DNA of 39,071 nt from Candidatus Magasanikbacteria bacterium RIFOXYD2_FULL_41_14 (GCA_001784475.1 MFRE01000005.1:31649-70719), one strand, 5' to 3'. Positions 11,170 to 31,016 are shown, numbered from the stretch's first letter. Numbers and translations: made by a program. Notes: generated from the letters alone by a model not told the origin.

Positions 11170-12470
11170 CCAAATCTGACCAAGTTAAAAAAATAGTTAA
11201 GAACGCTAAAAAAGTTTTAAGCTCTAAATCAAATTTTAAATTATTGACTCGCCCCAAGATTATAGTCAATTTGGCACAACAGCATTTTGATGCCAAAACT
11301 TTTAATCCTCGCCCTGGCTCTACCCCTGGTGACGTGGTATTTAGTTTGACTAACATCTGTAATTTATCCTGCCCGATGTGTTCCATTAACAATATCAAGG
11401 CCAAATGCGGGCAGGTGCCTAATTTTATCACTTTTGATGAGTTTAAAAAATTTGCTGAACTACTGGCTGCCGCCACGCGTTTAAGTTTTATGGGATTTAT
11501 TGGTGAGTCAATCTTAAATCCCGATTTTTTTAAAATTATTTCTTATCTTAAAAAAGAGTACAAAACCTTTTTGCATATTTCTACCAACGGTAATGGTTTA
11601 AATGAAAAAGTTCAAGATCAAATGTTGGCGGTTGGTTTTGACTCCATCACTTTTTCTATTCACGGTTTTTCGCCGGAAAGCTATAAAACTCTTCAGGCTG
11701 GCAGTTTGGACTTGGTGAAAAAAAATTTAGCGCGTTTGCTTACCAGACGAAAAGAGTTGAAATTAAAAGTACCTTATGTGACAGTGGTGTTTGCTTTAAA
11801 TCGCGCCAACATTGATGAGGCCCAACAAATGTTGGAATGGGTGGCTGGTCTGGGTGCCGACGCGTTTCACGTTTATCATTTTCACGACTATACCCCCACT
11901 CTAAAAGGGCTCATATTTAAAAAAGAAGAATACCCAGAAATAAACAAAAAAATTGATGCGCTTTATGAGTATGCGCAATTAAAAGGGTGGCTAAATTTGT
12001 TGCCACCCCAAAAGCCGTATTTTAAAGAAGACGCTTTGGAACAAGAAAAAGGGATAGTTAAGTGTGATCGGCCTTGGAAGGGTTTCCAAATGCGTTCGTC
12101 TTTTTCGCATAAGGACTGCTACTATATGGGGGTCTGCAACGTGTTTAATTCTTTCTTGTTTAATTACAAAGAACATCTGGAAAAATATGGTAAACTGGAT
12201 TTCCAAAAAATTTGGCAACATCCGGTTTTGCAATATTTAAGGCAAACCAGCAATTCGGCTGGTCCCAAGCCGGTTAATCCGTTGTGCGCTTATTGTAAAA
12301 GTTCAAAGCGAAAATATCTTAAAAATACCGATAACGCTGCCAATTATAAAGCTAAATTGGAAGCAATTGATGGTTTTTTTAAAGGGTTTAAAAAAGAATA
12401 TCCTAATTTTGAAGAAGTGGGTGGTGTTCAGATGCTATACACCGAAGATGACGAGTTGGCATTGAATTAA
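11166..12470 (+). CDS. Radical SAM protein with a SPASM/twitch-type C-terminal domain
   Basis: CNLSCPMC (CX3CX2C), GES.LNP, ISTNG, ITFSIHG; C-terminal CDRPW...GVC...IW...LR...CAYC. Confidence 0.9.
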   Translation: MTKSDQVKKIVKNAKKVLSSKSNFKLLTRPKIIVNLAQQHFDAKTFNPRPGSTPGDVVFSLTNICNLSCPMCSINNIKAKCGQVPNFITFDEFKKFAELLAAATRLSFMGFIGESILNPDFFKIISYLKKEYKTFLHISTNGNGLNEKVQDQMLAVGFDSITFSIHGFSPESYKTLQAGSLDLVKKNLARLLTRRKELKLKVPYVTVVFALNRANIDEAQQMLEWVAGLGADAFHVYHFHDYTPTLKGLIFKKEEYPEINKKIDALYEYAQLKGWLNLLPPQKPYFKEDALEQEKGIVKCDRPWKGFQMRSSFSHKDCYYMGVCNVFNSFLFNYKEHLEKYGKLDFQKIWQHPVLQYLRQTSNSAGPKPVNPLCAYCKSSKRKYLKNTDNAANYKAKLEAIDGFFKGFKKEYPNFEEVGGVQMLYTEDDELALN

Positions 12471-15040: not shown

Positions 15041-16429
15041 ATGAATCTAATTTATATTGGTTCCGGCTTTGTAGGTGCGTGTTCAGCCGGTGTGGCCGCT
15101 TCTTCCGGCCACAAAGTGTTGGTTTATGATATCGATGAGAGCAAGATCAATTCGTTGTCATCCGGCGATCATGACCGGATAGAGGCCTGTTTATTTGAGA
15201 AGGGATTAGGCGATTTGTTAACTAGAAATAAAGATCGGATAGAATTTACCACGCAATATTCCAAATTGGATAAATTTTTGGATACAGCGGATGCGGTTTT
15301 TATGTGTTTACCAACACCCGAAGTTGGCGAAACTGGAGAAAGTAATCTATCTTATTATTTTGATGCTGCCGAAAAATTAGCCATTTCGCTTACACGTCGC
15401 AATGGCGGCACACAAACAAAATATGTGGTAGTGGTTAATAAAAGCACGGTGCCAATTGATATGGTTAACCGCACGGCCGACATTTTAACTAAAGCCGGAG
15501 TTAATAATTTTGGGGTAGTGTCTAACCCGGAATTTTTAGTGGAAGGTAAGGCCACAGAAGGTTCACTTCGACCCGATCGGGTCGTGGTAGGGGCATCTTC
15601 GGAGCGTGATTTTTTGGTAATGCGCCAAATTTATCAACGCTTTTACGACTCTCCAGCTGTCCAATATGTTGAAGTTAATCCGCAGGAAGCGGCCGCGGGA
15701 AAGTTATTGGCAAATTTTTATTTATTTAATCGTTTGGCAATTTGTTTTGATGTGATTGGGCGCACTTGCGAGGCGTTTCCGGAATTAAAATTTGAACATA
15801 TTAGAAAAATTTTAACTGGAGATAAACGGATCGGTGATTGGGGTTTTTATGATAGTTTGTATGCCGGCGGAAGCTGTTTTATTAAAGACGCGCGTTCTTT
15901 ATCTCATCAATTGCAAACGGTGGGATATGGAGCAGAAATTATTAACGAAACTTATTTAGCCAACAAACGGCAATTAGAATTATTTTTAGCGCGCGCGGAA
16001 AAAGAAGCCGGTTTTGATTGGGTAGGGAAAACAGTTTGTTTGTTGGGTCTGGCTTTCAAACGCGATACCAATGATATTCGCAATTCGCCCTCGCTTTTGA
16101 TCGCGGATTTTTTGTTAGAAAAGCAAGTAAAGCAGATCAAAGCGCACGATCTGGCTGCGATGGAAAATTTTAAAAAGTATGGATCAAAGAGCGAGAAGAT
16201 AAGTTTTTGGGATGATCCTAAGGAAGCCGTTGCTGGTGCTGATGTGATTGTAATCGCGTCTGATTGGGCTCAGTTTCGTGGTTTGGCCGATTGGGTTTTA
16301 AGCGATTATAATGGACGGCCTTTAATTATGGATGGTCGCCGGATGTGGCAACATTGCTATTTTGATTTACAAAAAGCTGGCTTTAATATTATACCGGTTG
16401 GCGGTTCGTTTCTTAAAGGAGATAAATAA
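15041..16429 (+). CDS. ugd: UDP-glucose/GDP-mannose 6-dehydrogenase family, full length
   Basis: IGSGFVG, CLPTP, NKSTVP, SNPEFL.EG, DKRIG, GGSCFIKD, GLAFK.DTNDIRNSPS, DGR. Confidence 0.85.
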   Translation: MNLIYIGSGFVGACSAGVAASSGHKVLVYDIDESKINSLSSGDHDRIEACLFEKGLGDLLTRNKDRIEFTTQYSKLDKFLDTADAVFMCLPTPEVGETGESNLSYYFDAAEKLAISLTRRNGGTQTKYVVVVNKSTVPIDMVNRTADILTKAGVNNFGVVSNPEFLVEGKATEGSLRPDRVVVGASSERDFLVMRQIYQRFYDSPAVQYVEVNPQEAAAGKLLANFYLFNRLAICFDVIGRTCEAFPELKFEHIRKILTGDKRIGDWGFYDSLYAGGSCFIKDARSLSHQLQTVGYGAEIINETYLANKRQLELFLARAEKEAGFDWVGKTVCLLGLAFKRDTNDIRNSPSLLIADFLLEKQVKQIKAHDLAAMENFKKYGSKSEKISFWDDPKEAVAGADVIVIASDWAQFRGLADWVLSDYNGRPLIMDGRRMWQHCYFDLQKAGFNIIPVGGSFLKGDK

Positions 16430-16438
16430 TTTAAATTT

Positions 16439-17263
16439 ATGAAAAAATATGGAATCATGGGCGTGGGTATGGTAGGAGGTGCGTTGTTGCGTTATTTTAT
16501 TCAGCACCAGCAAATTCAGCCGATTTTGTTCGACCCGGCTAAAAATTTGAATTCGGTTGAAGAATTGAACAACGCAGAAGTAATTTTTTTGTGTGTACCA
16601 ACTCCCTATGACGAACAAAAGGGCGGTTTCGATTTGTCATATCTTGATCAGGCGTTTAGTGTTTTGACCGGTGAAAAAATTATTGTAATCAAGTCAACTG
16701 TTTTGCCGGGAACGACAGAAGAATATCAGCATCGTTTTCCTCAGCATAAAATTTTATTCAATCCAGAATTTTTGACTGAAGCAACTGCTGACTATGATAT
16801 GATTTATCCCACTAGGCAAATTGTTGGCTTCACCGCACAAAGCAAAGCAGTGGCGTCGGAAATAATTTCTATCTTACCGTTTGCCCCATTTCAAAAAATA
16901 ATTCCGGCCAAAGAGGCGGAAATGGTGAAATATTTTGGCAATACTTTGTATGCTCTTAAAGTTGTTTTTGCGAATCAAGTTTATGATTTATGTCAGAAAA
17001 TTGGCGTGGATTATGACACTGTTAAAGAATGTGCCAAGGCCGAGCCAATGGTCGGTAAAACTCATTTGGATGTAGTGCACAAAGGGTACCGCGGTTATGG
17101 TGGTAAGTGCTTGCCCAAAGACACGCGTGCCCTTATACAACTGGGAGAGCGCTTGGGGGCAGAGATGTCTGTTTTAAAAGTGGCGGAAGAATATAATAAT
17201 TCCTTAATTCAAAAGCAGGGAATTAAAAATCAAGATAAAGCGGAATTGGAAAAAGATCGTTAA
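16439..17263 (+). CDS. Short UDP-glucose/GDP-mannose dehydrogenase family protein lacking the C-terminal domain
   Basis: GVGMVG, CVPTP, IKSTVLPGT, NPEFL, AEMVKY..N, GYGGKCLPKD; ends at 274 aa. Confidence 0.85.
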   Translation: MKKYGIMGVGMVGGALLRYFIQHQQIQPILFDPAKNLNSVEELNNAEVIFLCVPTPYDEQKGGFDLSYLDQAFSVLTGEKIIVIKSTVLPGTTEEYQHRFPQHKILFNPEFLTEATADYDMIYPTRQIVGFTAQSKAVASEIISILPFAPFQKIIPAKEAEMVKYFGNTLYALKVVFANQVYDLCQKIGVDYDTVKECAKAEPMVGKTHLDVVHKGYRGYGGKCLPKDTRALIQLGERLGAEMSVLKVAEEYNNSLIQKQGIKNQDKAELEKDR

Positions 17264-17333
17264 CGAAGACCTTTTGAAGCTGGTAGTCGGTCTTTAATTT
17301 AAAATGTAGGTATCTGTTTTGCCACAAATCTAT

Positions 17334-18848
17334 ATGAGTAATAAGGAAAAAATATTGTCAGCCATTTCTTATGATACCATTGGCAATGTTTTGGTAAAAT
17401 TTTTTTTGGTAAGCTCCGGCATTATTGTGGCCCGAACGCTGGGTCCAGAACTTTTGGGTAAATATTCAATTATCTTAATTTTTTGCGGCAGTCTTGGTAT
17501 CATTGTTAGTTTCGGAATGGAAGACGCCCTTGTCAGATATTCGGGGGAGCTTTCTGGTTTGGGGCAAAATAAATGGGTGGGTAGGATGATTAAAGATATT
17601 ATTATTTTTCGAATACTGATAGTTTTGGCGTGCTCGGTCCTGTTGTTGGTATTCACCAATTTTACTTTTGGTGTTCTTGGGCTTGCGGTGGAGTGGTATA
17701 CAATTTTGTTTATCATTTATTTTATTTTTTCCAACGGTTTGTTTTCACTGTTTTCAACTTTTTTACAGACCAAGTTTCAGCAAAAGTATATTAATATTGT
17801 GACAGTGTCAATCTCGGCTGTTAATTTCTTGACTGTTGTTTGTCTGTGGTTTAGTCACCTTCTTACTGTACGCTCTTTGTTGTTGGCGGTAATTGTTTTT
17901 TTGACCACCAAGTTGATATTATTTGGTTGGCGTGCTCGTGTAGTTGCTCGCGAAACGATGAAAAATGATACCGATATTGCGCATGATCCGTTATTTTATA
18001 GTAATTTAAAAAAACGTTTTTTGAAATATAGCGTGACCATGTTATTCATTAGTTTGGGGGGTGTGATTTTGGCGTATCGCTCTGATGTATACTTTATCTC
18101 ATTTTTTTTGGGTTTAACCGCCGTGGGGTATTATAATTTAGCCAATAATTTTATTGAAGGCGCGTTCGGATTAGTCCTTCCCGGATCTTTTGGTCCTATG
18201 TATACCAGTATGATGGTGGAGAGCTATCATAAAAATGGCGTGGCGTCTTTGAATAAATTTTTTCAAAAAAATGTTGAATATGTATTTTTGTTTACTTTCC
18301 CCTTGGCGATCGGCGGAAGTATTTTAGCCCGAGAGTTAATCTTACTATTTTACGGGCCGGCTTATTTACCGGCAACTACTTTATTTATTTTATTTTTTTT
18401 AATATCAGCAATTTTTAAATTTGCCGGTTCGGTCTCGTCTATTTTTGTGGTTTTAGAGAAACCCCACTATTTTATGTGGACGAAAGTTATTTCAATTATT
18501 AACATACCACTTAATTTATTATTTATACCTTGGTTTGGAGTAATGGGAGCATTGGGAAGCACATCAATAACATTGTCGCTGATTTTTTTGGTAGAGTATT
18601 TTTTGGCGAAACATTTGGCATCTATTTCCATCCCTTGGGTGGCGATTTTTAAGATTGGTTTATTAGCGGTGTTTATGGGATTTTTTACTTTTTGGTTGGG
18701 AATAAAATTGCAGTTTTCGCTCGGCGTCAATTTATTTATTAATATTATGTTGAGCGCCTTACTTTACATGTTGTCGGTGTATTTTTTCAAAATTGTCGAT
18801 CGGGAATATTTTGATTTCTTTTTGAAAAAGTTTAAGTTTTCTAAATAA
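17334..18848 (+). CDS. wzx: Oligosaccharide flippase (Wzx/MOP family)
   Basis: About 12-14 TM segments; VARTLGPELLGKYS, DVYFISFFLG..AVGYYNLA, LNLLFIPWFGVMGA; ATG 17334 preferred over TTG 17319. Confidence 0.85.
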   Translation: MSNKEKILSAISYDTIGNVLVKFFLVSSGIIVARTLGPELLGKYSIILIFCGSLGIIVSFGMEDALVRYSGELSGLGQNKWVGRMIKDIIIFRILIVLACSVLLLVFTNFTFGVLGLAVEWYTILFIIYFIFSNGLFSLFSTFLQTKFQQKYINIVTVSISAVNFLTVVCLWFSHLLTVRSLLLAVIVFLTTKLILFGWRARVVARETMKNDTDIAHDPLFYSNLKKRFLKYSVTMLFISLGGVILAYRSDVYFISFFLGLTAVGYYNLANNFIEGAFGLVLPGSFGPMYTSMMVESYHKNGVASLNKFFQKNVEYVFLFTFPLAIGGSILARELILLFYGPAYLPATTLFILFFLISAIFKFAGSVSSIFVVLEKPHYFMWTKVISIINIPLNLLFIPWFGVMGALGSTSITLSLIFLVEYFLAKHLASISIPWVAIFKIGLLAVFMGFFTFWLGIKLQFSLGVNLFINIMLSALLYMLSVYFFKIVDREYFDFFLKKFKFSK

Positions 18849-18858
18849 AATTCTTTTT

Positions 18859-20034
18859 ATGAACAAACAAATTGGTGTTGGTGATATTCGGTTGGGTCCG
18901 CCAGAGAAAAAATATTTGCAAATGGTAATTGATTCCAACCGTCTTTCTTATGGGCAGTTTTCACAACGTTTTGAAAAAGAAATGGCTCAAAATCACGATT
19001 GCAACTTCGGAATTTTTTGTAACAGTGGCACGTCGGCCCTGCTTTTAGCTTTAATGACATTGAAAGAAAAATATGGTTGGAGTGACGGCGATGAAGTAAT
19101 TGTACCGGCCTTAACATTTATTGCCACCAGTAATGTCGTTTTGCAGGCCAATATGGTTCCGGTATTTGTGGATGCTGATGAAAAAACATATAATATAAAT
19201 CCGGATTTGATTGAACAAAAAATTACCAATAAAACTCGCTGTATTATTCCGGTTCATATGTTTGGTTTACCGTGTGAAATGGATAAGATATGCGTGATTG
19301 CCAATGCGAACGGATTGCGCATAATAGAAGATAGTTGCGAAACCATGTTCGCTTCTTTTCATGGGAAAAAAGTTGGGTCCTTCGGTGATTTGGCTTGTTT
19401 TTCAACATACATCGCTCATTTTTTAGTGACCGGTGTGGGCGGATTAGTAATTACCAATGATTCGGATTTAGCGGTGACAGTAAGAAGCATGATGAATCAT
19501 GGCCGTGATTCAATTTATATGTCAATTGACGATGATCGGGATGAGCGCGGGGTAGTTTTAAAGGAAGTAATAAGTAAAAGGTTTTCTTTTGTGCGTATGG
19601 GTTATAGTTTTAGGGCGACTGAGCTCGAGGCCGCCATTGGTTTGGGTCAGTTAGAACAAAAAGAAAAAATCGTGTCAACCAGAATAGAAAATGCTCATTT
19701 TTTTAAAGATGCGCTTAGAGATTTGGAAAAATATCTAATATTGCCGTTCGAACCAGAAGGCCGCGACCATCATTTTATGATGTTTCCAATTGTAGTACGT
19801 AGTGATAAAAAAAATAAACTAATTAATTTTTTGGAAGAGGCCAACATAGAAACTAGAGATATGCCGACAGTAATTGAACAGCCATTTTATAAACAGTTGT
19901 TTGGCGATGCGCTTCACGGTTATCCAGTTACAAAAAAAGTAATTGATAGCGGATTTTATATCGGCTCGCATCAATATTTGACCAAAGCAGAAAAAGGCTA
20001 TATTATAGATAAATTGCACGAATTTTATAAATAA
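18859..20034 (+). CDS. DegT/DnrJ/EryC1/StrS-family PLP enzyme, ColD-like (probable NDP-4-keto-6-deoxyhexose 3-dehydratase)
   Basis: [24 protein letters not shown] and FSTYIAH(187)FLVTGVGG: His at the position of the PLP lysine, as in ColD/E1. Confidence 0.75.
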
Positions 20035-20045
20035 ATTTACCTAGT

Positions 20046-21077
20046 ATGACTAAAAAAGCTTTGATCACTGGTATTACCGGGCAAGACGGTTCTTATTTGG
20101 CAGAGTTGCTATTAATAAAGGGTTATGATGTCCATGGAGTGGTACGTCGTTCTTCTAGTTTTAACCGTGGTCGAATAGAGCAGATTTATACCACTGATCC
20201 CCATACTGTCAAAGAAAAATTTCATCTTCATTATGGCGATCTGAGCGACTCCAGTTCGATTAATTCTTTGGTGGCCAAACTTCAGCCAGATGAATTATAT
20301 CATTTAGGTGCTCAAAGTCATGTTGGTATCAGTTTCCAAATTCCAGAATATACGGCTGATGTCACTGGTTTGGGCACGTTGCGTTTACTTGAGGCGGTGC
20401 GACACCTGTCACCAAAAACAAAATTTTACCAGGCATCTAGCAGTGAGTTGTATGGTAAGGTAGAAGGAAAGACTCAAAATGAACAAACGAAATTTTATCC
20501 CCGCAGTCCTTATGCGACTGCAAAATTGTATGCTTATTGGATAACAAAGAATTATCGTGAATCTTATCAAATGTTTGCTTGCAATGGCATTCTTTTCAAC
20601 CACGAATCTCCTCGCCGAGGCGAAAATTTTGTCAGTCGTAAAATAACTCTCTCGATCGCCAAAATTTTACGGGGCGAGTTGGATAAGTTGTACATTGGTA
20701 ATTTGGAAGCAAAAAGAGATTGGGGATATGCGCCAGAATATGTAGAAGGAATGTGGCGTATAATGCAGCATGATAAGCCTGATGATTATGTACTCGCTAC
20801 TGGCAAAACTCACAGCGTGCGTGAATTTGTTGAAGAAGCTTTCCGTAATGTTGATATTAACATAAAATGGCAGGGCTCTGGTTTATCGGAAAAAGGCATC
20901 GACATAAATTCTGGTAGAGAGATGGTGGCGATTGACGCGGAGTATTTTCGTCCTAACGAGGTTGATGTATTATGTGGGGATTTTTCTAAGGCAGAAAATG
21001 AGTTGGGGTGGTGGCCAAAAACTGATTTTAAAGAATTGGTTAAGATAATGGTACGGGCGGATTCCAATCAGAGCTAA
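20046..21077 (+). CDS. gmd: GDP-mannose 4,6-dehydratase
   Basis: [64 protein letters not shown]. Confidence 0.97.
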
Positions 21078-21088
21078 TCAAAATATTT

Positions 21089-22198
21089 ATGAATAAACCA
21101 TTATTGCAAATTTCACCTTATTTCGACGAGCAAGAAGAAATTGAGTTGTTGGAAGTGGTGCGGTCTATTTGGCTTATAGAGAGGAGTAAAAATGATTTGT
21201 TAGAAAAAATTTTTTCAGAATTTACCGGCGCCCCATTTTCAGTGACTTGCTCTAATGCGAGTGTGGGGATTTTTATGTCTTTAATTGCTTGTGGAATCGG
21301 ACGGGCATCTTTGGTTGGATCGGAAGCGGATGAAGTTATTGTGCCTGACATAACTTTCGTCGCGACAATAAATGCGATATTGTTGGCGGGCGCCAGGCCG
21401 GTGGTCGTGGATATTAACGAGTATGACGCACATATTAATGTAGTGAATATTAAAAAAGCCATCACCAAAAATACTAAGGCTATTATGCCTGTTCATTTGT
21501 ATGGCGGTATGGCAGATATAGTGGCCATTCAAGAATTAGCCGATCGAAATAATTTGGTGATAATAGAAGACGCCGCCCAAGCAGTTGGAGTCAAATTGGA
21601 CGGTCGTCACGCTGGCACCTTTGGTCGTTTTGGAGTATTCTCTCTTTATGGTAATAAGATAATCACCTGTGGAGAGGGTGGTATCGTTGTGTGTCAAAAC
21701 GCTGATGATCGGGATAAAATTTATCGAATCAAAAATCACGGTCGTTTAAAAAAAGGTGCATTCATTCACGAAGAAATTGGTTATAATTTCAGTTTTACTG
21801 ATTTACAGGCGGCAGTAGCCATCGCGCAGATGAAAAAAATTAATTACATTATTAGTCGTAAGCGAGCGATCAACACTCAATATCGAGAGTTATTGAAAAA
21901 TAGCAGGGTATCCTTTTTAGAATCACCTCAAAATATAGATGAGACGTTCTGGTTCACCAATGTATTATGCGACGACGCCGAAGAAATGGCTAATAAGTTG
22001 GCAATTGAGAATATCCAAAGCCGAAGGTTATTTTATCCAATTCACCTGCAACCATGTTATAAAAATAAACAGTTAATACAGTTAGATGGTGAGTATAATA
22101 ATGCTGATAAATTATTTAAACGTCTATTATCTTTACCTAGTTCAGTTTCTTTGACCGCAGACGAAATAGAGTCGGTCGCAAGTGTTATAAAAAAATAA
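21089..22198 (+). CDS. DegT-family sugar aminotransferase, perosamine-synthase-like
   Basis: IMPVHLYG, IEDAAQA, FSLYGNK(190)IITCGEGG, GYNF...DLQAA; directly follows gmd. Confidence 0.85.
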   Translation: MNKPLLQISPYFDEQEEIELLEVVRSIWLIERSKNDLLEKIFSEFTGAPFSVTCSNASVGIFMSLIACGIGRASLVGSEADEVIVPDITFVATINAILLAGARPVVVDINEYDAHINVVNIKKAITKNTKAIMPVHLYGGMADIVAIQELADRNNLVIIEDAAQAVGVKLDGRHAGTFGRFGVFSLYGNKIITCGEGGIVVCQNADDRDKIYRIKNHGRLKKGAFIHEEIGYNFSFTDLQAAVAIAQMKKINYIISRKRAINTQYRELLKNSRVSFLESPQNIDETFWFTNVLCDDAEEMANKLAIENIQSRRLFYPIHLQPCYKNKQLIQLDGEYNNADKLFKRLLSLPSSVSLTADEIESVASVIKK

Positions 22199-22202
22199 AA
22201 TT

Positions 22203-23318
22203 ATGGTCGAAAATAAAAAAATAAAAATCGCCATTATTTCCTATCCATTTCTGTCGTTTTTGGGAGGGGCGGAACGTTATGTGGAAGAAATGGCTAGAGG
22301 TTTTGAGCATAATGGGGTAGATGTGACAATTTTTTCATCGTGGAATTTATTTTGGAAAGAAAAAAGACAAACCGATGCCACTATTATTAAAATTTTTAAC
22401 TTTCCATTTACTCGACGTTTTAAATATTACCACGAGATGTTTTTTAATTTTTTTGTTTATTTTTTATATAGAAAAAAATTGCGTAGTTTTGATTTAATTA
22501 TTCCTCAAGCTCCAGCCGCTTATTTTTTACTTTTTGATAAGTATTTAAAAAACAAAACAGTGCCAGTGAGCTACAATAGTCCTTGGCGTAGAAATCAAAA
22601 AGAGGAAAAGTCAATATATGAGAACGCCTTTTCGGTGATTTGTATAAACCAAGCATGTAAAGAAAATATTTTAAAGAACTACCCGCATATTGATATCAAT
22701 AAATTAGTTGTTTTTAATGAGGGTGTCCACGTTGATAAATTTTATCCCAGATCTACAGATGAAATTGTGGCTATGCGTCAGAAATATAATATTCCAATCA
22801 ATAAGCTGTTTTTATTAACCTTGCAGAGAATGGATAGTCGTAAGGATTTGGTCACACTAGCCAATATTCTAATTAATGTCGCCAAAGCCGCTCCTGACAT
22901 TTTTGTGGGCATAGCTGGTGGTGGTCCGGATCGAGACAAGGTTGCCGTTTTAGTGGACGACGCCGGTCTAAACAATCTTAAAATGCTTGGTTTTATCGAA
23001 GAAAATGATTTATCAAGTATTTATGCTTCCGCCGACGCTTTTTTAAGTGCCACTTGGGGGCAGGTGGCTTTAGAAGCGATGGCTTGTGGTGTCTGCACGT
23101 TTGTTTTAAATGATCATCCGGCTTGTAAAGAAAATGTCTGCGACCTAAATTTGTTATTGCCATGCAACCAACAGTCGTACCATAATATTTTAGGTGTAAT
23201 TGTTAATCGGAATTTATGTAATCATTATGGAAAAAAAGGCCTGGAGTTTATTTTAGATAATTTTAAATGGGATATAATTACAAAAAAAATTTTAAATCAT
23301 TATTTGCAGGTTAAATAG
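22203..23318 (+). CDS. Glycosyltransferase family 4
   Basis: GGAERY, QRMDSRK, IAGGGP, LGFI, YASAD....WGQVALEAMACG. Confidence 0.85.
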   Translation: MVENKKIKIAIISYPFLSFLGGAERYVEEMARGFEHNGVDVTIFSSWNLFWKEKRQTDATIIKIFNFPFTRRFKYYHEMFFNFFVYFLYRKKLRSFDLIIPQAPAAYFLLFDKYLKNKTVPVSYNSPWRRNQKEEKSIYENAFSVICINQACKENILKNYPHIDINKLVVFNEGVHVDKFYPRSTDEIVAMRQKYNIPINKLFLLTLQRMDSRKDLVTLANILINVAKAAPDIFVGIAGGGPDRDKVAVLVDDAGLNNLKMLGFIEENDLSSIYASADAFLSATWGQVALEAMACGVCTFVLNDHPACKENVCDLNLLLPCNQQSYHNILGVIVNRNLCNHYGKKGLEFILDNFKWDIITKKILNHYLQVK

Positions 23319-23320
23319 CT

Positions 23321-24271
23321 ATGGTAAATTTTAGCAAAAAAAAGATTTTAATTACTGGTGGGGCCGGCTTTATCGGTAAGCACCTGATACAAAGATTACA
23401 ACAACAAGATGTGCGATCTATCAGGGTAACCTCTCGTAATTTAGAATCTGATTCATTTTTGAATAATTTAGGTTTAGATATTAAGGTCGGAGATTTAAAG
23501 GATCCTATTTTTTGTGACCAAATTACCGAAGGAATAGACGTTGTCTTTCATTTGGCAGGACAAAAACACAATTATTTCGTTCATTCAGCACAGCCAGCTA
23601 ACATATTGTATGAGAACAATTTAATCAATGGTAATATTTTGGAATCTGCGCGTCATTCAAATGTTAGTTGTCTAGTTATGGCTAGTTCGATTGTGGTTTA
23701 TCGTGGTGGCAATATCAAAACATATGATGAAGATTCAGAAACTATTTTGTCTCGAGAAGCGCCTCACCTAGGGTATGCTTGGTCTAAGCGAATATTAGAA
23801 ATTTTAAGTTATTATTATCGGACTCAATACCACATTGATATAAGAGTTTGTCGATTGGGTAGTGCCTATGGACCGTTTGATAAGTTTAACTCAGAATTTG
23901 CGCAGATAGTCCCTTCTTTGATTAATAAGATCTATCACGGTGACGTTATCGAAATAGACAGTCGGTCCACAATAAAAAATTTAATATATGTTGGCGACAT
24001 CGCTGATGCTCTGATCAAAACATTATTTGTTAATAAATGGTTTAATGTGCCGGTAAATATCGTGGATCCGAAAAGTCGCATTACCTATGGTAATTTGGTG
24101 GATATGCTAGGTAATATTTTAAATATTAAACCAATAGTAAAAGAGATTGGTACTGTTGGTTTAGAAAAATATTTTCGTTCTAAATATAATTTTTACACAC
24201 CGCGAGTGTCTTTAGATGAAGGTCTGCGTGCAACAGTCGATTATTATTTAAAGCATGTCGCAACCAAGTGA
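23321..24271 (+). CDS. Extended SDR, GDP-fucose-synthase/ColC-like NDP-sugar reductase
   Basis: TGGAGFIG, VFHLAG, PA..LYEN..IN.NIL, SS..VY, YAWSK (YxxxK), YGPFDKF, IVPSLI. Confidence 0.75.
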   Translation: MVNFSKKKILITGGAGFIGKHLIQRLQQQDVRSIRVTSRNLESDSFLNNLGLDIKVGDLKDPIFCDQITEGIDVVFHLAGQKHNYFVHSAQPANILYENNLINGNILESARHSNVSCLVMASSIVVYRGGNIKTYDEDSETILSREAPHLGYAWSKRILEILSYYYRTQYHIDIRVCRLGSAYGPFDKFNSEFAQIVPSLINKIYHGDVIEIDSRSTIKNLIYVGDIADALIKTLFVNKWFNVPVNIVDPKSRITYGNLVDMLGNILNIKPIVKEIGTVGLEKYFRSKYNFYTPRVSLDEGLRATVDYYLKHVATK

Positions 24272-24274
24272 TCT

Positions 24275-24904
24275 ATGATAAATTTTAATGAATTTTACCG
24301 TGAAATCGATCCTTGGGGTACTACTAAATTTGCTCACGAGCGTGCGCGGCTACGTCTCACTGAAAAAATGTTGGGCCACAATCAGTTTAATCACGCTCTA
24401 GACCTAGGATGCGGTGAGGGAATATTTACTAAGATAATTAAACAGCACGCCATCTTGGTTGACGCCATTGATATTTCACTCTCGGCAATTAGTCGGGCCA
24501 AACAGAGGTGCGCCGGTGTTGATTTCACAGTGGGCGATATTAGAAATTTTAAATTTTTTGGTAACTATGATTTGATTGTCTGTTTGGAGGTAATTTATTA
24601 TTTAGATTTAGAAGATCAAAAAAATATTTTACAAAAAATGCGTGATTTTATAGATAAGAATGGTTTAATTTTATTATCTTTTGTTATCAACGACCAATCC
24701 TATATTCATTATGCTGATTTTATTAAACTTTTAACCGGAATGTTTAGTCTAAAACTTATCTTGGTGTTGAGTGTTAAGAGCCGTAGTAACATTTTTATAG
24801 ATAGAATAAAAATGTGGTATTATAATTTTTTATTAAATAAACGCGGTTTTGTTCATCCGGCTATTAATCAAGTCGGAGTACTGTTGAAATGCAGTTCTAA
24901 ATAG
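24275..24904 (+). CDS. SAM-dependent methyltransferase, NodS-like
   Basis: N-terminal FY...DPW......ER, ALDLGCGEG.FT, AIDIS..AI.RA, YDLIVCLEVIYYL. Confidence 0.8.
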   Translation: MINFNEFYREIDPWGTTKFAHERARLRLTEKMLGHNQFNHALDLGCGEGIFTKIIKQHAILVDAIDISLSAISRAKQRCAGVDFTVGDIRNFKFFGNYDLIVCLEVIYYLDLEDQKNILQKMRDFIDKNGLILLSFVINDQSYIHYADFIKLLTGMFSLKLILVLSVKSRSNIFIDRIKMWYYNFLLNKRGFVHPAINQVGVLLKCSSK

Positions 24905-24920
24905 AGAAATAACTATTAGT

Positions 24921-25862
24921 ATGAAGAAGATTTCTATTGTAATTCCAACATACAATCGTCTAGAAGTGTTAAAGTCTTGCGTTTTCTCAATAGTTAATCA
25001 GGATTTTAATTCTGCTGATTACGAAATAATCATAGTAGATAATGGACCATCAAATGATGGAACTGATATTTTTATTGCGGAAATTATTAAAACTAGAAAA
25101 AACATTTTTTATTTTCAAAGAAAAGAGAAAGGATGTATTTTTGCTAGAAATTTTGGTTTCCAGGAGGCAAAGGGTGAAATTTTATTGACCGTTGACGACG
25201 ACGTCGAGTTTTTAGGACGTGATTGCCTGACGATACTCGCCCATACGTTTGAGGACAAAGATGTTGGTATGGTTGGGTCGGTTGAGTTGCATGGTAATAA
25301 AGATGAAGTGAGCACAGTTAAGTCTTGTAAGAATATTAATTTAAACAAAATTGGTCGAGTGACTAAATGGGGGAGTTTTTATGCTAGTTTTAATCAGCTG
25401 GACGGCTATGACGATTTGGTAGTTGTAGATCATTTTAGAAGTTGCTTTATGGCAGTCAGAGCTGATTTGTTTAATGCCGTTGGGGGTTTTGATGCTAAAT
25501 ATAACGCCGATGGCATGGGTTTTCGCTACGAGACCGATCTGTGTATGCGAGTCAAAAATTTAGCTAAAAAAGTTGTTATTAATCCCAAAATAAGAATTTG
25601 GCATAAGGTTGCTAAACGTAGTCGAGGTTTTGAACGAGGTAAAGGCAACCGTTATTTATTTTTAGTTTCCCGCAACCACATGTATTTCATGCTCAAATTT
25701 TTTTGGCACAAGCATCGTTGGTTCTGGTTTGTGTATGATTTTTTGATAGGCGCTTACCGAACGCCTGGTTTGCTTTTTTTACTAAAAAGACGAGAGCTGA
25801 GTTGGGCTAATTTAGTATGTGTGTTTAGAGGTAAATTATCTGGTTTGAGTTTTTTAAAATAG
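24921..25862 (+). CDS. Glycosyltransferase family 2
   Basis: ISIVIPTYNR, IVDN, ARNFG, TVDDD, VGGFD, YETDLCMR. Confidence 0.9.
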   Translation: MKKISIVIPTYNRLEVLKSCVFSIVNQDFNSADYEIIIVDNGPSNDGTDIFIAEIIKTRKNIFYFQRKEKGCIFARNFGFQEAKGEILLTVDDDVEFLGRDCLTILAHTFEDKDVGMVGSVELHGNKDEVSTVKSCKNINLNKIGRVTKWGSFYASFNQLDGYDDLVVVDHFRSCFMAVRADLFNAVGGFDAKYNADGMGFRYETDLCMRVKNLAKKVVINPKIRIWHKVAKRSRGFERGKGNRYLFLVSRNHMYFMLKFFWHKHRWFWFVYDFLIGAYRTPGLLFLLKRRELSWANLVCVFRGKLSGLSFLK

Positions 25863-25868
25863 GTTTTT

Positions 25869-27227
25869 ATGGAGCTAAAAGAGGCTATAAAAAAAAGATA
25901 CTCCTGCAGAGATTTTTTAGACAAGTCGGTTCCCAAAGATATTGTTGAGGATATTTTATCATACGCTGTATATTCGGCGACAAGTTGTAATCGGCAGGCC
26001 TGGCAAGTTAAAGTTGTTACTGATTCCGGTTTAAAAGAAAAATTAAATTATGGCTGTGCCGTTAATCAGCATTATTTATACAAAGCGCCAGTGTGTCTTT
26101 GTATATTTTATGATGAAACACAAGAAGTCGGCGACAAAATTGGCGCAGCTGCTATTTCTGTGGGAATGTTTGCCCAAACGATATTACTGCTTTTGCAAGA
26201 GTATGCTCTTGGTGGAATTTTTTTGGCCGGTATTAAAAAACCGGATATGGCCAACAGTATTTTGGATGTAGACAGTAATTATAGGTTAAGGGGGATGATT
26301 TTGTTGGGGCATCCAGCCGAAGGACAGCCGATTGTTGTTCCGAGAAAAAAGGTCTCCGAAATTACAAGTTATAATTATTCTAAAAATGAAAATATTGTAA
26401 GTTTAGAAAATTCTATAAATCCAAACGCTTGGCAATTGGATAAATTAATTAATTTTAGAAATCAGATTTTGTGGTATAAGGGGTTTGACGTCGACAATAG
26501 ATATAAACACGTTGAGCGCATTCCTTCTGGATCAGAATCGTGTTTAAAAATTTTCAACCACATAAACAAGGATATCACCCAAAATTTAATTTCCGTTGAC
26601 AATTATTTTGACTTTCTCTCTTATGGCGGTGAATATTTTGTGGCCAATGAAATGGTAATTAATAACAATGTAAAAAATTTTTATTTATTTGATATCGGTG
26701 CCGATGTTATTCGATATTTAAAAACTAGGATGAGTAGTTTATTTAATGACAAAACTCTAAAGAGTATTAATTTTATTAGTCCCACAATTATAGACGACAA
26801 TGATTTTAATATACCAGTTGATGCCGAGAGTATGGATTTAGTTACTTGTTATTTTCGGCTGGAACTTTTTCAAGATCCAGGTAAAATTATAGATAAATTT
26901 TATAAAATTTTAAAGAAAAATGGTATTGTTTATATTGCTTGCCAGAATAAATATTTTTTTGATTGGTACAAGATAAAAAAGGGATATAACCATGATTATT
27001 CTTTGGGTAGAAATTGGAATATTGGTCCGGAAAAGAAATACTCTTATGGGGAATATTGTGAAATGTTTAAGCATAATTTTGAGATAATTGAGTGTACAAA
27101 AATTAATTCTTCAGGGGTAATTTTAAATAAAGTTATGAAAAAATTTCTAGGGATTAAGTTAAAGTTTTTCGAAGAGAAAATGTTTCTTCCAGAATATTTT
27201 TTATTTAAATTAAAAAAATGCCAATAG
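25869..27227 (+). CDS. Nitroreductase-family domain fused to a methyltransferase-like domain
   Basis: aa 1-170: AIKKRYSCRDF, SATSCNRQAW, AQTILL.....LG, LLGHP, PRK. aa ~245-452: IPVDAESMDLVTC...LE...DP......YKILKKNG.VYI. Confidence 0.75.
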   Translation: MELKEAIKKRYSCRDFLDKSVPKDIVEDILSYAVYSATSCNRQAWQVKVVTDSGLKEKLNYGCAVNQHYLYKAPVCLCIFYDETQEVGDKIGAAAISVGMFAQTILLLLQEYALGGIFLAGIKKPDMANSILDVDSNYRLRGMILLGHPAEGQPIVVPRKKVSEITSYNYSKNENIVSLENSINPNAWQLDKLINFRNQILWYKGFDVDNRYKHVERIPSGSESCLKIFNHINKDITQNLISVDNYFDFLSYGGEYFVANEMVINNNVKNFYLFDIGADVIRYLKTRMSSLFNDKTLKSINFISPTIIDDNDFNIPVDAESMDLVTCYFRLELFQDPGKIIDKFYKILKKNGIVYIACQNKYFFDWYKIKKGYNHDYSLGRNWNIGPEKKYSYGEYCEMFKHNFEIIECTKINSSGVILNKVMKKFLGIKLKFFEEKMFLPEYFLFKLKKCQ

Positions 27228-28492
27228 ATAACAAAAAATTAGTTAGCAAGATAGAAAAGCAGATTCGTTGGTTTGAAACGATGGAGCAAGGTGGTTTTTT
27301 GGGTGGTCCGGTTGTTCATATTTGGGGCAATTCTTTGGATTACTGCGGGCCCGGTTTGGATTGGCGTTATGAAGGGTACTTGTCCGGAATGGTTAAATTA
27401 TACAGACAAACAGGTGATCATTATTTTCTTGATAAAATTACCAATAGTTTAAAAATATTTGAAAATTTTCAATACAAAAATGGCGCTTTTAGGTGCTCGC
27501 ATTTCCAGTCAAATCCAATTAATTATGGCACACCACACGAGGTCGCCGCTCTAATTGGCCTAATACACTGTGCTGATTTGTTAAAAAATGAAAATCCTGA
27601 ATTTTTTGACAAGGCACGTGAGATAACTTTAAATTATTTAAATAATTTTTTGATTAAGTATTTATGGAATCCGGTTTTAGGAGGTTTTGTCGATTGGCCT
27701 TATAGTGTATTTAATTTATTTACGTACAACAAAAATAGTACCGTCGGCTTGTTTTTAATAATGGCTAGTAGGACTTTTAAAATTGACTTAGATTATTATA
27801 TAGAAAAATTAGCCAAACGTTTTTTATTGACACCTACTCTTTATCCTCAGACAGAAGGTAAGTATGAAAATCTTTATATTCCATATTATAACGCTCGGTG
27901 TGTACCTTTTTTAGTTGAATTATCTAAATATCTTAATGACCCCGCTTATTTTAAGAGGGCGCAGGATATTTGCGCGCATATTGCCAATAGTTTTTTGGAT
28001 CTTGATTACGCGCAAGGTTTCGCCTTAACCACGGATAATGTCGGTAATGCCAAAATAAAAAACGTTCTCTGGGTGGCCGCTTCCGGTGACATTCTGTCTG
28101 CTTTTTTGTCAATTAATCAACTATCAGTTTACGATCAGTATATAAATTGGTTGCTTGACAAACAATTGGAAAGCGGTGGTTTCCCAACGTTTATTAGAGA
28201 AGACGGTAGTTATGATTTGTTAGATATTGTGCCAGTTACAGGTTGGAACGATAAGATGTTTAATTTTTTAACAGATTTAGCACAGTTAGAAAAAAATGAT
28301 TTTAAAAATTTAGGTAGTCAACACAGTTATAAATTACAAAATTATCCATTGTGTGGTGGTAAATATTTTTACGCAGAGGATAATGATAGTATGGTGTTAA
28401 AAACTAAAAACAGCGTTGTGTTTAGTTGGACTAAAAATAATATATTTTCGAGTGTTAATAAACTAGAACCGCGTAAGATAAATTTTAAATAA
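27218..28492 (+). CDS. Uncharacterised protein, probable (alpha/alpha) toroid fold
   Basis: Helical repeats LYRQTGDHYFL, FQYKNGAF, LSKYLNDPAYFKRA, WLLDKQLESGGF resemble six-hairpin glycosidase / QW-type motifs; start overlaps the upstream gene. Confidence 0.55.
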   Translation: MPIDNKKLVSKIEKQIRWFETMEQGGFLGGPVVHIWGNSLDYCGPGLDWRYEGYLSGMVKLYRQTGDHYFLDKITNSLKIFENFQYKNGAFRCSHFQSNPINYGTPHEVAALIGLIHCADLLKNENPEFFDKAREITLNYLNNFLIKYLWNPVLGGFVDWPYSVFNLFTYNKNSTVGLFLIMASRTFKIDLDYYIEKLAKRFLLTPTLYPQTEGKYENLYIPYYNARCVPFLVELSKYLNDPAYFKRAQDICAHIANSFLDLDYAQGFALTTDNVGNAKIKNVLWVAASGDILSAFLSINQLSVYDQYINWLLDKQLESGGFPTFIREDGSYDLLDIVPVTGWNDKMFNFLTDLAQLEKNDFKNLGSQHSYKLQNYPLCGGKYFYAEDNDSMVLKTKNSVVFSWTKNNIFSSVNKLEPRKINFK

Positions 28493-28495
28493 GTT

Positions 28496-29836
28496 ATGAA
28501 TATTTTAATAACTCAAGAAAATTATTATCCTCTACACCATGGCGGGACTATGCAGTTTATTATTGGTATGGCAGAATATTTAAAATTAAAAGGATACAAG
28601 GTGTTCGTATATACTTGTAGCTATCGAGAAAGTAATTTATTTGGTGAAGTGGAGCGACCAGAAGCGACGGTGAATTACTCTGATTTTATGGTCGGTTCAA
28701 TGAGCGATCCTTTTGCGGTGACAAAATACATTAGTGAATTTGTTAAATATATACGAGAAAAGAAGATAGATTTGGTATTCGCAAATAATCACAATTCATT
28801 AGCTTGGATTAAAGCATCGAAAAAAGCGGGAGTACCAGTAGTTTATGGATGTCACGGTGTTGGTTTAATGGATCCACTAAAAAGACGTTTTTTGATGCCC
28901 AACGATGAGTTGTGCTATGGTTTTCCCAGTATTAAAGAAGCCAGCCGTTGGTTTTGGATGGAAAATCGTAGTTTGATGAAAAAATTATTAGGTTTTTTAT
29001 TATTTTTTTCACCTTTTATAAGAAGTACTAAAGTGCGAAATTATTGGCAATATAAAGAGGCGGTGGCTATCTTAAATTCAGCGGATGCTAGATATGGAAA
29101 TTCAGCTATTACTGCGAAACTATTTTCAAATAAAAAAAATACTTTTGGGTTTCCACTGGCGATTAATGCTTCCAACCAAATGATGTCCAATCATTATTAT
29201 CCGTTGGTTGATGATGATTTTTTAAAAAAATTTAATCTTAAAAATAAATCATATATTTTATGCCCTGGACGTTTAAATTATATAAAGGGTCAAGAATATA
29301 TGATCAAAGCTTTGCTGTCAATTAAGAACAAAAATTTAAAGTTGGTTTTTACTGGTAACGCCGCTCTGTTTGGTGATAAATTTGAACAGATGAGTGCTTA
29401 TGAAAATAGGATTAGGGACCTAACTAAAGAATATAACTTAAGCGACAGGATAGTATTTACCGGGCTACTTGATTTCGGAGACATGAGAAAAATTTATTCC
29501 TCGGCGTTAGTTACCGTCATACCCTCGGTCTGGCTCGAAACGTTTGGGTATGTTACTATCGAGTCAATGGCCTGTGGTACCTCAGCAATAGTAACTAGTA
29601 ATTGTGGCAGTGCAGAATGTGTTAGTCGAGAGGACGGTTTTATTATCGATAGAAAAAATGAAAAACAAATTTCCGATATTATTAATGACAATGAAAGCAG
29701 ATTTGTTGATTTGGGTGAGCGAGCACGGAAAAAGGTGCTGGATAATTATGATTGGAGTGTATCGGGCGATAAATATCTGGATATATTTACTAAAGTTTAC
29801 AGCGAACGTAAATCAGTCAAAGTCTATAGTAATTAA
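28496..29836 (+). CDS. Glycosyltransferase family 4
   Basis: YYP...GG, PGRLNYIKG, VIPSVWLETFGYVTIESMACG. Confidence 0.9.
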   Translation: MNILITQENYYPLHHGGTMQFIIGMAEYLKLKGYKVFVYTCSYRESNLFGEVERPEATVNYSDFMVGSMSDPFAVTKYISEFVKYIREKKIDLVFANNHNSLAWIKASKKAGVPVVYGCHGVGLMDPLKRRFLMPNDELCYGFPSIKEASRWFWMENRSLMKKLLGFLLFFSPFIRSTKVRNYWQYKEAVAILNSADARYGNSAITAKLFSNKKNTFGFPLAINASNQMMSNHYYPLVDDDFLKKFNLKNKSYILCPGRLNYIKGQEYMIKALLSIKNKNLKLVFTGNAALFGDKFEQMSAYENRIRDLTKEYNLSDRIVFTGLLDFGDMRKIYSSALVTVIPSVWLETFGYVTIESMACGTSAIVTSNCGSAECVSREDGFIIDRKNEKQISDIINDNESRFVDLGERARKKVLDNYDWSVSGDKYLDIFTKVYSERKSVKVYSN

Positions 29837-29861
29837 ATAAAAATATAATATATTTTTATAC

Positions 29862-31016
29862 ATGATTAGCAACGTTAAAATAATAATAATTTTTTTTCCT
29901 GGTGATTTGGACGAAGGCCAAAATGGCACTAAACACGACATCGTCAATCGGATTAAAATTTTTAATGAGCTTGGATTTAAAGTTCATCTGATTGTGTTTG
30001 ATCGCAATGCCAGCGAACAATTGAGGAAAAATGACTTTGGGGCTGAAGTACTGGTGATTCCAAGAGTAATTAGCCGTAGTGAATACTATAGGAGTAGCGG
30101 TCTCGACAATCAATCGGTGATGGGGGTGGTCAGTGCGGAAATTGTGAAAAATAATCCTGATATTTTATGGTTTGAGTATGTAAATTTTGCAAATTTGGCC
30201 GCTATTTTGAAAAAACAATTTCCCGATAAAAAAATATTTTTTCGTTCCCACAATTATGAAATTGGGCACGCTTGGGAAAAGAATCTATATAATTTTAAAA
30301 AAAGTATTTTTAGCCTCCAGACCGTTGCGTCAATGTTGAAAGATTTCTTTTTTATTTACAAATTAGAAAACAAGATGTTTGCGGTAGCGAATAAAATTTA
30401 TTGTATTTCTCGATTAGATTTTAAAAAATACAGCAGGCGGTTTGGAGTTGAAAAGATTGATTACCTGCCGTTTTTTTCTGATTATGCAAGTTTGTATAAG
30501 TACAAACAGAACAAATCAATTCTTGACGTGGTATATTTAGGCAGTGATTTTATTAATAATGTTAATCTTAGTGGTGTTTTATTAATTAATAAAATAGCGG
30601 CTAAATTGAAAAATAGCAGTGTGGTATTTCATATATTAGGTAAAAGTTTGAACAAAAAAATATTGTTAGCAAAAAATGTGGTGTATCATGATTATGTGGA
30701 AGATTTGGACAGTTTTTTTGATGATATGGATGTAGGCATTGTGCCAGTAGAAATTGGGTTTGGGATGAAGGTAAAGGCCTACGAGTTTCTAAAGCGTGGT
30801 TTTCCGACAATTATATCAAAGAGATGTAGTGATGTTTTTGGAGGCGTGCCGTCCAGTGACTATCTGGTAGCTGGCAACATAAATGAATGGGTTAAGTGCA
30901 TTATTTTTTTGAAGGACGATATGGCTAGAAAGAAAATGTCAGAACACGCCTTATTTTTTATGAATACAGAATTTTCTAAAGAAAAAATAGCCGCGACATT
31001 ATCCAGTTGTCAATAA
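29862..31016 (+). CDS. Glycosyltransferase family 4-like
   Basis: RSHNYE, N..G, YVEDL, IVPV..GFGMKVKAYE. Confidence 0.8.
   Translation: MISNVKIIIIFFPGDLDEGQNGTKHDIVNRIKIFNELGFKVHLIVFDRNASEQLRKNDFGAEVLVIPRVISRSEYYRSSGLDNQSVMGVVSAEIVKNNPDILWFEYVNFANLAAILKKQFPDKKIFFRSHNYEIGHAWEKNLYNFKKSIFSLQTVASMLKDFFFIYKLENKMFAVANKIYCISRLDFKKYSRRFGVEKIDYLPFFSDYASLYKYKQNKSILDVVYLGSDFINNVNLSGVLLINKIAAKLKNSSVVFHILGKSLNKKILLAKNVVYHDYVEDLDSFFDDMDVGIVPVEIGFGMKVKAYEFLKRGFPTIISKRCSDVFGGVPSSDYLVAGNINEWVKCIIFLKDDMARKKMSEHALFFMNTEFSKEKIAATLSSCQ

Follow-up and report, generated by a model that had tools for sequence, protein, structure and literature searches.

In the colitose pathway of Escherichia coli O55 (Gmd, ColD and ColC), the 3-hydroxyl of GDP-4-keto-6-deoxy-D-mannose, the product of the GDP-mannose 4,6-dehydratase Gmd, is removed by ColD, a protein of the DegT fold that carries a histidine in place of the Schiff-base lysine and has no Fe-S cysteine motif. 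Perosamine synthase (Per or RfbE; Caulobacter 3BN1, 3DR4 and 3DR7, and E. coli O157) shares the fold, has the Schiff-base motif GNK, and is likewise adjacent to Gmd. Perosamine synthase reportedly also accepts the ColD product in vitro and converts it to a trideoxysugar, a finding attributed to Cook and Holden in 2008; to our knowledge, however, sugars of the 4-amino-3,4,6-trideoxyhexose class have so far been obtained in vitro only, and no natural glycan that contains one has been reported. Here we analyze a stretch of 39,071 nt from Candidatus Magasanikbacteria bacterium RIFOXYD2_FULL_41_14 (GCA_001784475.1 MFRE01000005.1:31649-70719; one strand, 5' to 3'; the window in what follows), in which a His-type DegT gene, gmd and a Lys-type DegT gene form a contiguous triad. 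The initial annotation had proposed that the triad may be a natural route to such a sugar, and this proposal is partly supported. With a probability of about 0.5, the His- and Lys-type enzymes would act in sequence, 3-dehydration preceding 4-transamination, to give GDP-4-amino-3,4,6-trideoxyhexose (GDP-3-deoxyperosamine). We favour this order of events because the genome is without an Fcl/ColC-like gene as judged by the NCBIfam model, and because pairing with a His-type gene is confined to one clade of the Lys-type enzymes.

A comparable order of reactions is found among dTDP-sugars. In forosamine synthesis SpnR is the 4-aminotransferase and SpnS the N,N-dimethyltransferase. In this Saccharopolyspora pathway SpnQ precedes them as a His-type 3-dehydratase, so that a His-type dehydratase, a Lys-type 4-aminotransferase and an N-methyltransferase follow one another as they may in the window. 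SpnQ differs in carrying a [2Fe-2S] cluster, in needing a reductase, and in acting on dTDP-2,6-dideoxy substrates in secondary metabolism, whereas the pair in the window has a GDP-sugar context, no Fe-S motif and a place in a surface-glycan cluster. In our proposal the His/Lys pair would thus be, by analogy, the GDP-sugar counterpart of SpnQ/SpnR.

The His-type open reading frame (ORF) is a clear member of the DegT_DnrJ_EryC1 family (Pfam PF01041, 308 bits, E = 1.2e-91). Its codons and translation agree with the initial annotation, which had noted a protein of 391 aa that contains EDSCE and has His187 in place of the Schiff-base lysine; the histidine is encoded by CAT at 19417-19419, within TAC ATC GCT CAT of the FSTYIAH motif. 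His187 aligns with the active-site histidine of the E1 dehydrase structure 3bcx, a position occupied by lysine in the E1 mutant 3bb8. In an alignment with the E. coli O55 ColD of the O55:H7 genome, which spans 365 residues at 27% identity, its counterpart is His188, and it is invariant among the aligned relatives (20 of 20). Yersinia E1 dehydrase 3bcx is also the best match in the PDB (E = 5e-55); Caulobacter perosamine synthase (about 5e-51, over the N-terminal half only) and E. coli ColD 2gms (3e-45) match as well.

The likeness to the E1/E3 system of CDP-3,6-dideoxyhexoses (RfbH/AscC with AscD) extends to the active-site dipeptide, which is Ala-His in both, Ala186-His187 in the window enzyme, where ColD has Ser-His. 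Unlike E1, however, the window enzyme lacks the Cys-rich stretch: CyCapgCdntC of E1 aligns to the Cys-free siyms.idddrder, and only the cysteine of EDSCE is retained. RfbH is the best NCBIfam model for the protein, but the score of 246 bits is below the cut-off of 423; the same model gives 263 bits to the genuine E. coli ColD and 708 bits to the true RfbH of a Patescibacteria locus (L004). The window has no CDP-glucose pathway genes, and a search of the whole genome for the reductase domain PF00175 gave one match, on another contig, with 31.7 bits. An E1-type reading, Fe-S and reductase dependent, was therefore rejected on the missing cysteine motif and the RfbH score.

A review of ColD, E1 and SpnQ chemistry (PMC8987622) describes ColD as having neither a [2Fe-2S] cluster nor a reductase partner, and because His187 and the missing E1 cysteines agree with the criteria given there, we infer that the window enzyme is ColD-like in mechanism, with a histidine acid/base, no [2Fe-2S] cluster and no reductase. 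The term ColD-like used in the initial annotation is apt to this extent, the His type and the absence of the E1 Fe-S cysteines, but not as an identification with ColD itself. Because identity is 27%, and because its family and the ColD/RfbH side form two separate, starred sister clades in the tree, the enzyme is on sequence evidence not a ColD orthologue but a member of a large uncharacterised family that is sister to the ColD/RfbH lineage.

The middle gene is gmd, as annotated: the ORF scores 535 bits with NCBIfam TIGR01472 against a cut-off of 415, and 490 bits with Pfam GDP_Man_Dehyd. The Lys-type ORF that follows belongs to PF01041 (318 bits, E = 1.3e-94), and Lys190, read from AAG at 21656-21658, lies in FSLYGNK as the initial annotation had stated; this motif aligns with FSFFGNK of 3bn1, the Caulobacter perosamine synthase that is its best solved relative (E = 1.2e-53). 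Among NCBIfam models the LegC family gives it the highest score (262 bits), as it does for E. coli O157 Per (393 bits), and identity to the nearest relatives in the database is no more than 50%. The contig of the nearest of these (P0121, 50% identity) was not among the metagenome loci listed.

To place this enzyme we used 80 metagenome loci that encode relatives, the best 80 of 576 in the scan. A tree of 88 rows was built from 81 genes of these loci, each encoding 300 aa or more (4 shorter ones were dropped), the window enzyme, 5 database relatives without gene context, and E. coli O157 Per, the only characterised Per included; this tree and that of the His-type enzymes each came from a quick search. 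The window enzyme falls within a clade of 38 rows (support in the SH-like approximate likelihood ratio test, SH-aLRT, 98; reported support 98-99), and E. coli O157 Per lies outside it, in the other major clade. Seven residues are conserved in a clade-specific manner: E31, N216, R219, F225, F234, K250 and Q321 in the starred clade of the window enzyme, where the Per-like enzymes have S, D, M, Y, Y, R and M, respectively. The two Tyr-to-Phe changes (F225 and F234) would be compatible with a lost hydroxyl partner. Thus, although the enzyme is, as the initial annotation had it, perosamine-synthase-like, with the same fold and GNK motif and a perosamine synthase as its best solved relative, the tree places it apart from the characterised Per, of which it is not an orthologue; it also differs from the Per systems in that no PerB-type N-acetyltransferase is encoded nearby.

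An NHGR motif is common to the window's aminotransferase clade (KNHGR, residues 216-219) and to the His family (NHGRD, residues 213-217), in an equivalent loop; Per-like enzymes have G/D-x-G-M there.

An alignment of all DegT genes placed a His-type gene in 18 of the 80 metagenome loci as well. Pairing was scored where a His-type DegT lay within 3 kb, and a row was counted as unpaired where none did and at least 1.3 kb was available on both sides; many of the metagenome contigs are short, and related loci are not independent samples. By this measure, 15 of the 20 assessable rows in the window's clade are paired (14 loci and the window itself; 5 unpaired), versus 2 of 26 outside it (24 unpaired). 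The remaining rows inside the clade comprise 13 with contigs too short and 5 without context, with no reference among them, and those outside 23 with contigs too short and the E. coli Per reference, with none lacking context. Since Per-like enzymes outside the clade are often adjacent to Gmd too, a shared Gmd product alone does not explain the pairing.

The His partners do not form a single group. They come from two deep lineages in the tree, the window's own family, represented by the window, by L110 and L114, and by L175 at three separate positions, and the ColD side, where a GHH group (n = 10) and a YSHQ group (n = 4, of which 3 are in the tree) join E. coli ColD at an SH-aLRT of 95. The His lineage of the partner can change from one branch of the Lys clade to the next: L140 has a GHH-type enzyme, the window one of its own family. 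This looks like replacement of the partner with adjacency kept, and, because the partners stem from two deep lineages, like repeated recruitment of His enzymes. The paired genes often overlap, by 4 nt in L111, L119 and L123 for example, and are 1-2 nt apart in L130 and L138. The His/Lys pair recurs as a cassette of two enzymes, and its co-location is above expectation. The triad noted in the initial annotation is not unique to the window.

The surroundings of the pair vary. Clade members lie close to Gmd in L115, L123, L125 and L140, and in L130 the pair stands beside dTDP-rhamnose genes, not Gmd. A 13-kb contig (L114) carries the His enzyme, a NodS-like methyltransferase, the Lys enzyme, a family 4 glycosyltransferase (GT4) and a NUDIX protein, with no short-chain dehydrogenase/reductase (SDR) in the 13 kb; this order echoes that of the window (His, Gmd, Lys, GT4, SDR, NodS-like methyltransferase), the two NodS-like proteins being 24% identical. 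GT4 genes also follow the Lys gene in L140 and L138, as in L114. In a Cloacimonadales genome (L033, 3.1-Mb chromosome, G401), Gmd, an RmlC-like epimerase, the His enzyme, a WecE-like aminotransferase of a different subfamily from the window's Lys enzyme, an ATP-grasp ligase, a GT-like protein and an LbH acyltransferase are encoded in this order, and a search for an Fcl-like gene across the chromosome found none (best match 55 bits). As a separate observation, a protein of about 130 aa with the domain DUF6165 is encoded directly upstream of the Lys gene in four marine loci with the pair (L111:670-1059, L112:1013-1399, L115:949-1386 and L123:5622-6008).

The family of the His enzyme is very large. 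Among 8000 candidates scored, 7214 proteins had E-values of at most 1e-30, and the 120 best relatives, the window's own protein left out, are 56-68% identical. We surveyed the available flanks of the best 80 of 328 confirmed relatives, as 80 genome loci. Gmd (at least 40% identity) was present in 23 of the 80 and SDRs of the Fcl/ColC side in 27, a common order being Gmd, His enzyme, Fcl-like gene, which is the colitose layout. Eight SDRs tested from these loci gave 188-428 bits on the GDP-fucose synthase (Fcl) model, on which E. coli ColC scores 305 and E. coli Fcl 551. From these neighbours, the most likely role of the family is 3-dehydration in pathways of the colitose type across many uncultivated phyla. 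The window resembles these operons in that Gmd is adjacent, but differs in having an aminotransferase in the downstream position and a host without a ColC/Fcl-like gene by the NCBIfam model. A Lys-type DegT occurred in the flanks of 5 of the 80 loci, and in no case was it a near relative of the Lys enzyme in the window.

The His enzyme is patchy within the phylum of the window: 7 of 400 other genomes encode it, none of 6 genomes of the same family does, and 3 of 400 have a relative of the Lys enzyme. A search of the 400 for the triad found a single genome (G367) with both the His and the Lys gene, on different contigs, and the seven His loci have Gmd or an Fcl-like gene adjacent and no clade-type Lys enzyme. 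One Patescibacteria locus (L004) had been considered as a further triad and was rejected, its second DegT being the true RfbH mentioned above and not a Lys enzyme.

Two arrangements in the His family are recorded here for their own sake. The same Patescibacteria locus, from a single-cell genome (L004:2604-8123), has two adjoining 3-dehydratase systems: a CDP-glucose-4,6-dehydratase-like gene and the true RfbH come first, then Gmd, an enzyme of the His family and a gene of the Fcl-like type (413 bits). In five loci (L039, L047, L067, L068 and L078), ORFs of about 632 aa (e.g. L068:6004-7902) fuse the His-type dehydratase to a C-terminal GT2 domain that resembles polyprenyl-phosphate hexose transferases (AglJ-like).

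In the colitose pathway Gmd and ColD work with ColC, an Fcl-like epimerase/reductase. A search of the whole genome (1.095 Mb, 96% complete) with the NCBIfam Fcl model gave no Fcl/ColC-like reductase, the best match reaching 58 bits. The one candidate is a very divergent SDR encoded second after the aminotransferase gene, which scores 59.8 bits with the Fcl model. This protein is 24% identical to E. coli ColC, its best PDB match is a UDP-glucuronate decarboxylase (71 bits), and its best relatives among 5.8 billion proteins are only about 30% identical (120 bits). Aligned with human UXS, it has Val/Ile at the Glu of the UXS STSE stretch, a residue we take to be catalytic. An Fcl-like hidden Markov model (HMM) of our own gave it 140 bits versus 119 for a GalE-like SDR encoded at 31077. 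Attempts to assign it to a named family failed, as NCBIfam, the PDB, the large protein database, the tree and the custom HMM gave weak or conflicting answers. Its role is the main weakness of any conclusion on the locus.

Several findings weigh against a sequential route. Of all matches to the divergent SDR, the highest score (141 bits) comes from an Fcl-like SDR in a His-family locus of Elusimicrobia, and in an SDR tree it falls weakly on the Fcl/ColC side (SH-aLRT 95), with a branch length of 2.08 and an unresolved base; it could therefore act as the reductase of the dehydratase product and so close a route to a 3,6-dideoxyhexose. In 75 of the 80 His-family genome loci the available flanks contain no Lys-type DegT, and thus the dehydratase needs no aminotransferase. 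Five members of the Lys clade, with room on both sides, lack a His partner, and in three marine loci among the 18 paired metagenome loci (L123, L125 and L154) the pair adjoins a clear Fcl-like gene (234-270 bits with the NCBIfam Fcl model for the two tested, above 320 bits with the custom HMM for all three), so that their enzymes possibly serve separate sugars, colitose and an amino sugar. On these grounds the initial annotation's own alternative stays viable, namely that perosamine and a 3,6-dideoxyhexose are made in parallel. Both would start from a shared Gmd intermediate: the His enzyme and the SDR would form a GDP-3,6-dideoxyhexose, colitose-like or its unepimerised isomer, and the Lys enzyme, whose best solved relative is after all a perosamine synthase, would form GDP-perosamine, the genes being neighbours only through their common need for Gmd. 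The usual company of the His family, Gmd and an Fcl-like reductase, agrees with such a division of labour, as does the joint presence of Lys, His, Gmd and Fcl-like genes in the three marine loci. We nonetheless consider this reading, the main rival, less likely than the sequential one. The SDR is barely separable from generic SDRs, whether by the Fcl score, by the custom HMM, by the PDB match or by its long branch; a shared Gmd leaves both the clade-confined pairing and the exchange of His partners across lineages unexplained; L114 and the Cloacimonadales chromosome are without any Fcl-like gene; and none of the 34 window ORFs scanned is a perosamine-type N-acetyl- or N-formyltransferase.

The probability that remains beyond sequential and parallel use of the Gmd product falls to other substrates or to a hetero-oligomer. 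The Lys enzyme might be unrelated to the His enzyme and act on another nucleotide sugar, for example on a UDP-4-keto-pentose derived from UDP-glucuronate by UDP-glucose dehydrogenase and the SDR, in an ArnB-like 4-amino-pentose route. A UDP-glucose dehydrogenase gene is indeed present in the window, the best PDB matches of the SDR are UDP-glucuronate decarboxylases, the Lys enzyme matches ArnB (202 bits with NCBIfam; PDB 1mdo, E = 6e-48), and in L130 the pair stands beside dTDP-rhamnose genes. However, the ArnB score relative to other models is no higher than for the genuine E. coli Per, the Lys gene begins 11 nt past Gmd, an adjacency that speaks for a GDP-sugar, and clade members lie near Gmd in the four loci named above, and the SDR lacks the Glu of the STSE stretch; a substrate of this kind is quite improbable. 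Still less probable, to the point of being hardly credible, is that the His protein is no dehydratase but an altered subunit of a hetero-oligomer with the Lys aminotransferase. The report on SerTA of Serratia (Ser4/Ser5; PMC11726168) describes tandem DegT genes whose products form an active heterotetramer with one subunit lacking the catalytic lysine, and the many His/Lys pairs with overlapping stop and start codons recall this arrangement. Ser4, however, is truncated and inactive, whereas the His protein is full length, forms a conserved family of its own that is usually without a Lys partner and typically has Gmd and an Fcl-like reductase nearby, and has an invariant histidine aligned with the catalytic histidine of ColD and E1. 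A SerTA-like complex with an inactive subunit was for these reasons judged unlikely.

In the sequential route as we propose it, Gmd, assigned by family membership, would convert GDP-mannose to GDP-4-keto-6-deoxy-D-mannose. The His enzyme would then strip the 3-hydroxyl in the manner of ColD, with pyridoxamine 5'-phosphate (PMP) and the histidine acid/base and with no Fe-S cluster or reductase, to give GDP-4-keto-3,6-dideoxy-D-mannose, a step suggested by the histidine in the lysine position, by the lack of the E1 cysteines and by the Gmd and Fcl-like genes that usually accompany the family. On the strength of the comparative genomics, the Lys enzyme would aminate C4 of this 3-deoxy intermediate to yield GDP-4-amino-3,4,6-trideoxyhexose. 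More speculatively, the NodS-like methyltransferase may N-methylate the amine, and the sugar may reach a glycan through the adjacent GT4. A supply of GDP-mannose in the host is plausible: the window itself encodes a PGI/PMI-type SIS protein, an NTP-transferase encoded outside it matches mannose-1-phosphate guanylyltransferase best (178 bits, below the cut-off), and the genome has one gene of the PGM/PMM family.

Taking the loci together, it is conceivable, at somewhat less than even odds, that 3-dehydratases of the ColD type, together with 4-aminotransferases of one specialised clade, make up a dedicated and widespread two-enzyme cassette, present in Patescibacteria, marine bacteria and Cloacimonadales, that provides a natural route to NDP-4-amino-3,4,6-trideoxyhexoses; the product would be GDP-3-deoxyperosamine in the Gmd-linked loci and would here probably be N-methylated. 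Neither a natural 4-amino-3,4,6-trideoxyhexose nor this gene pairing came up in our literature search, which is weak evidence of absence since chemical names that contain commas are unsearchable.

Were the sequential reading true, bacterial glycobiology would gain a new deoxy-amino sugar and its pathway, the 'unnatural' product of perosamine synthase would prove to have a natural, dedicated enzyme pair, and a function would be found for two large uncharacterised DegT groups to which databases now give no label beyond 'DegT/DnrJ/EryC1/StrS aminotransferase' or 'perosamine synthetase'; glycodiversification would also profit from the enzymes. If instead the products are parallel, the locus would be an ordinary glycan cluster for a colitose-like sugar and perosamine. 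The clade-specific residues offer a handle on how an aminotransferase chooses a 3-deoxy over a 3-hydroxy substrate, and the locus is relevant to the surface chemistry of episymbiotic bacteria that are uncultivated.

The genes discussed here are collected in Table 1. Neighbouring genes of the triad are separated by 11 nt, and the three ORFs are real, high-scoring genes, chance ORFs being excluded; they are enclosed in a + strand run of genes from 17319 to 31016 with intergenic gaps of at most 25 nt. The GT4 gene begins 4 nt past the aminotransferase stop codon. The His- and Lys-type ORFs of the triad are the only two DegT genes in the genome.

Table 1. Positions in the window of the triad and of neighbouring genes, with predicted functions
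Gene product	Position	Strand	Remarks
UDP-glucose dehydrogenase	15041-16429		full-length
Wzx-type polysaccharide flippase	17319-18848	+	Pfam Polysacc_synt and Polysacc_synt_3; directly upstream of the triad
His-type DegT enzyme	18859-20034	+	391 aa; predicted PMP-dependent GDP-4-keto-6-deoxy-D-mannose 3-dehydratase
Gmd, GDP-mannose 4,6-dehydratase	20046-21077	+	343 aa; TIGR01472
Lys-type DegT sugar aminotransferase	21089-22198	+	369 aa, Lys190; PF01041
GT4 glycosyltransferase, putatively acting on the product sugar	22203-23318	+	Pfam Glycos_transf_1 and Glyco_transf_4
Very divergent extended SDR	23321-24271	+	316 aa; possible 4-ketoreductase for the dehydratase product, or unrelated
NodS-like S-adenosylmethionine (SAM) methyltransferase, candidate amino-sugar N-methyltransferase	24275-24904	+	Pfam NodS 48.9 bits, NCBIfam NodS 58.5 bits
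SIS-domain phosphoglucose/phosphomannose isomerase-type protein	33959-35023	+	Pfam bact-PGI_C 93.8 bits; possible mannose 6-phosphate source

The host is a Patescibacteria-like bacterium with a small genome (1.1 Mb), and the named relatives of the window's proteins are mostly from Patescibacteria, Omnitrophota and Elusimicrobia. The window holds a run of glycan-biosynthesis genes on one strand, with a Wzy_C/O-antigen-ligase-like protein, many GT2 and GT4 glycosyltransferases, methyltransferases, a radical-SAM protein, UDP-glucose dehydrogenase and the Wzx-type flippase. Because the flippase gene lies directly upstream, we place the triad in a surface-glycan cluster, and the best explanation of its setting is that it forms one nucleotide-sugar module in a long surface-glycan operon.

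Some further ORFs of the window deserve mention. Directly after the full-length UDP-glucose dehydrogenase lies a truncated relative (16439-17263, 274 aa) that has the N-terminal and central domains and is without the C-terminal UDP-binding domain; a similar truncated form of 291 aa, 33% identical to it, is encoded in a marine locus with a His/Lys pair (L112:6205-7080), where it adjoins a relative (41% identical) of the window SDR at 31077. Within the operon, a protein of 452 aa (25869-27227) fuses a nitroreductase-family domain to a methyltransferase-like C-terminal half and has no NCBIfam family match, and an ORF of 424 aa (27218-28492) has no match in Pfam or NCBIfam. A radical-SAM protein of the SPASM/maturase-like type is encoded within the glycan cluster (11166-12470), and a radical-SAM gene is also found downstream of the Lys/His pair in L111 (4963-6312). 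Upstream of the glycan genes, two large ORFs (891-3176 and 16-771) have no Pfam match; one of them, of 761 aa, is rich in Cys and in Ser/Thr and has an N-terminal hydrophobic segment, and both may encode surface proteins.

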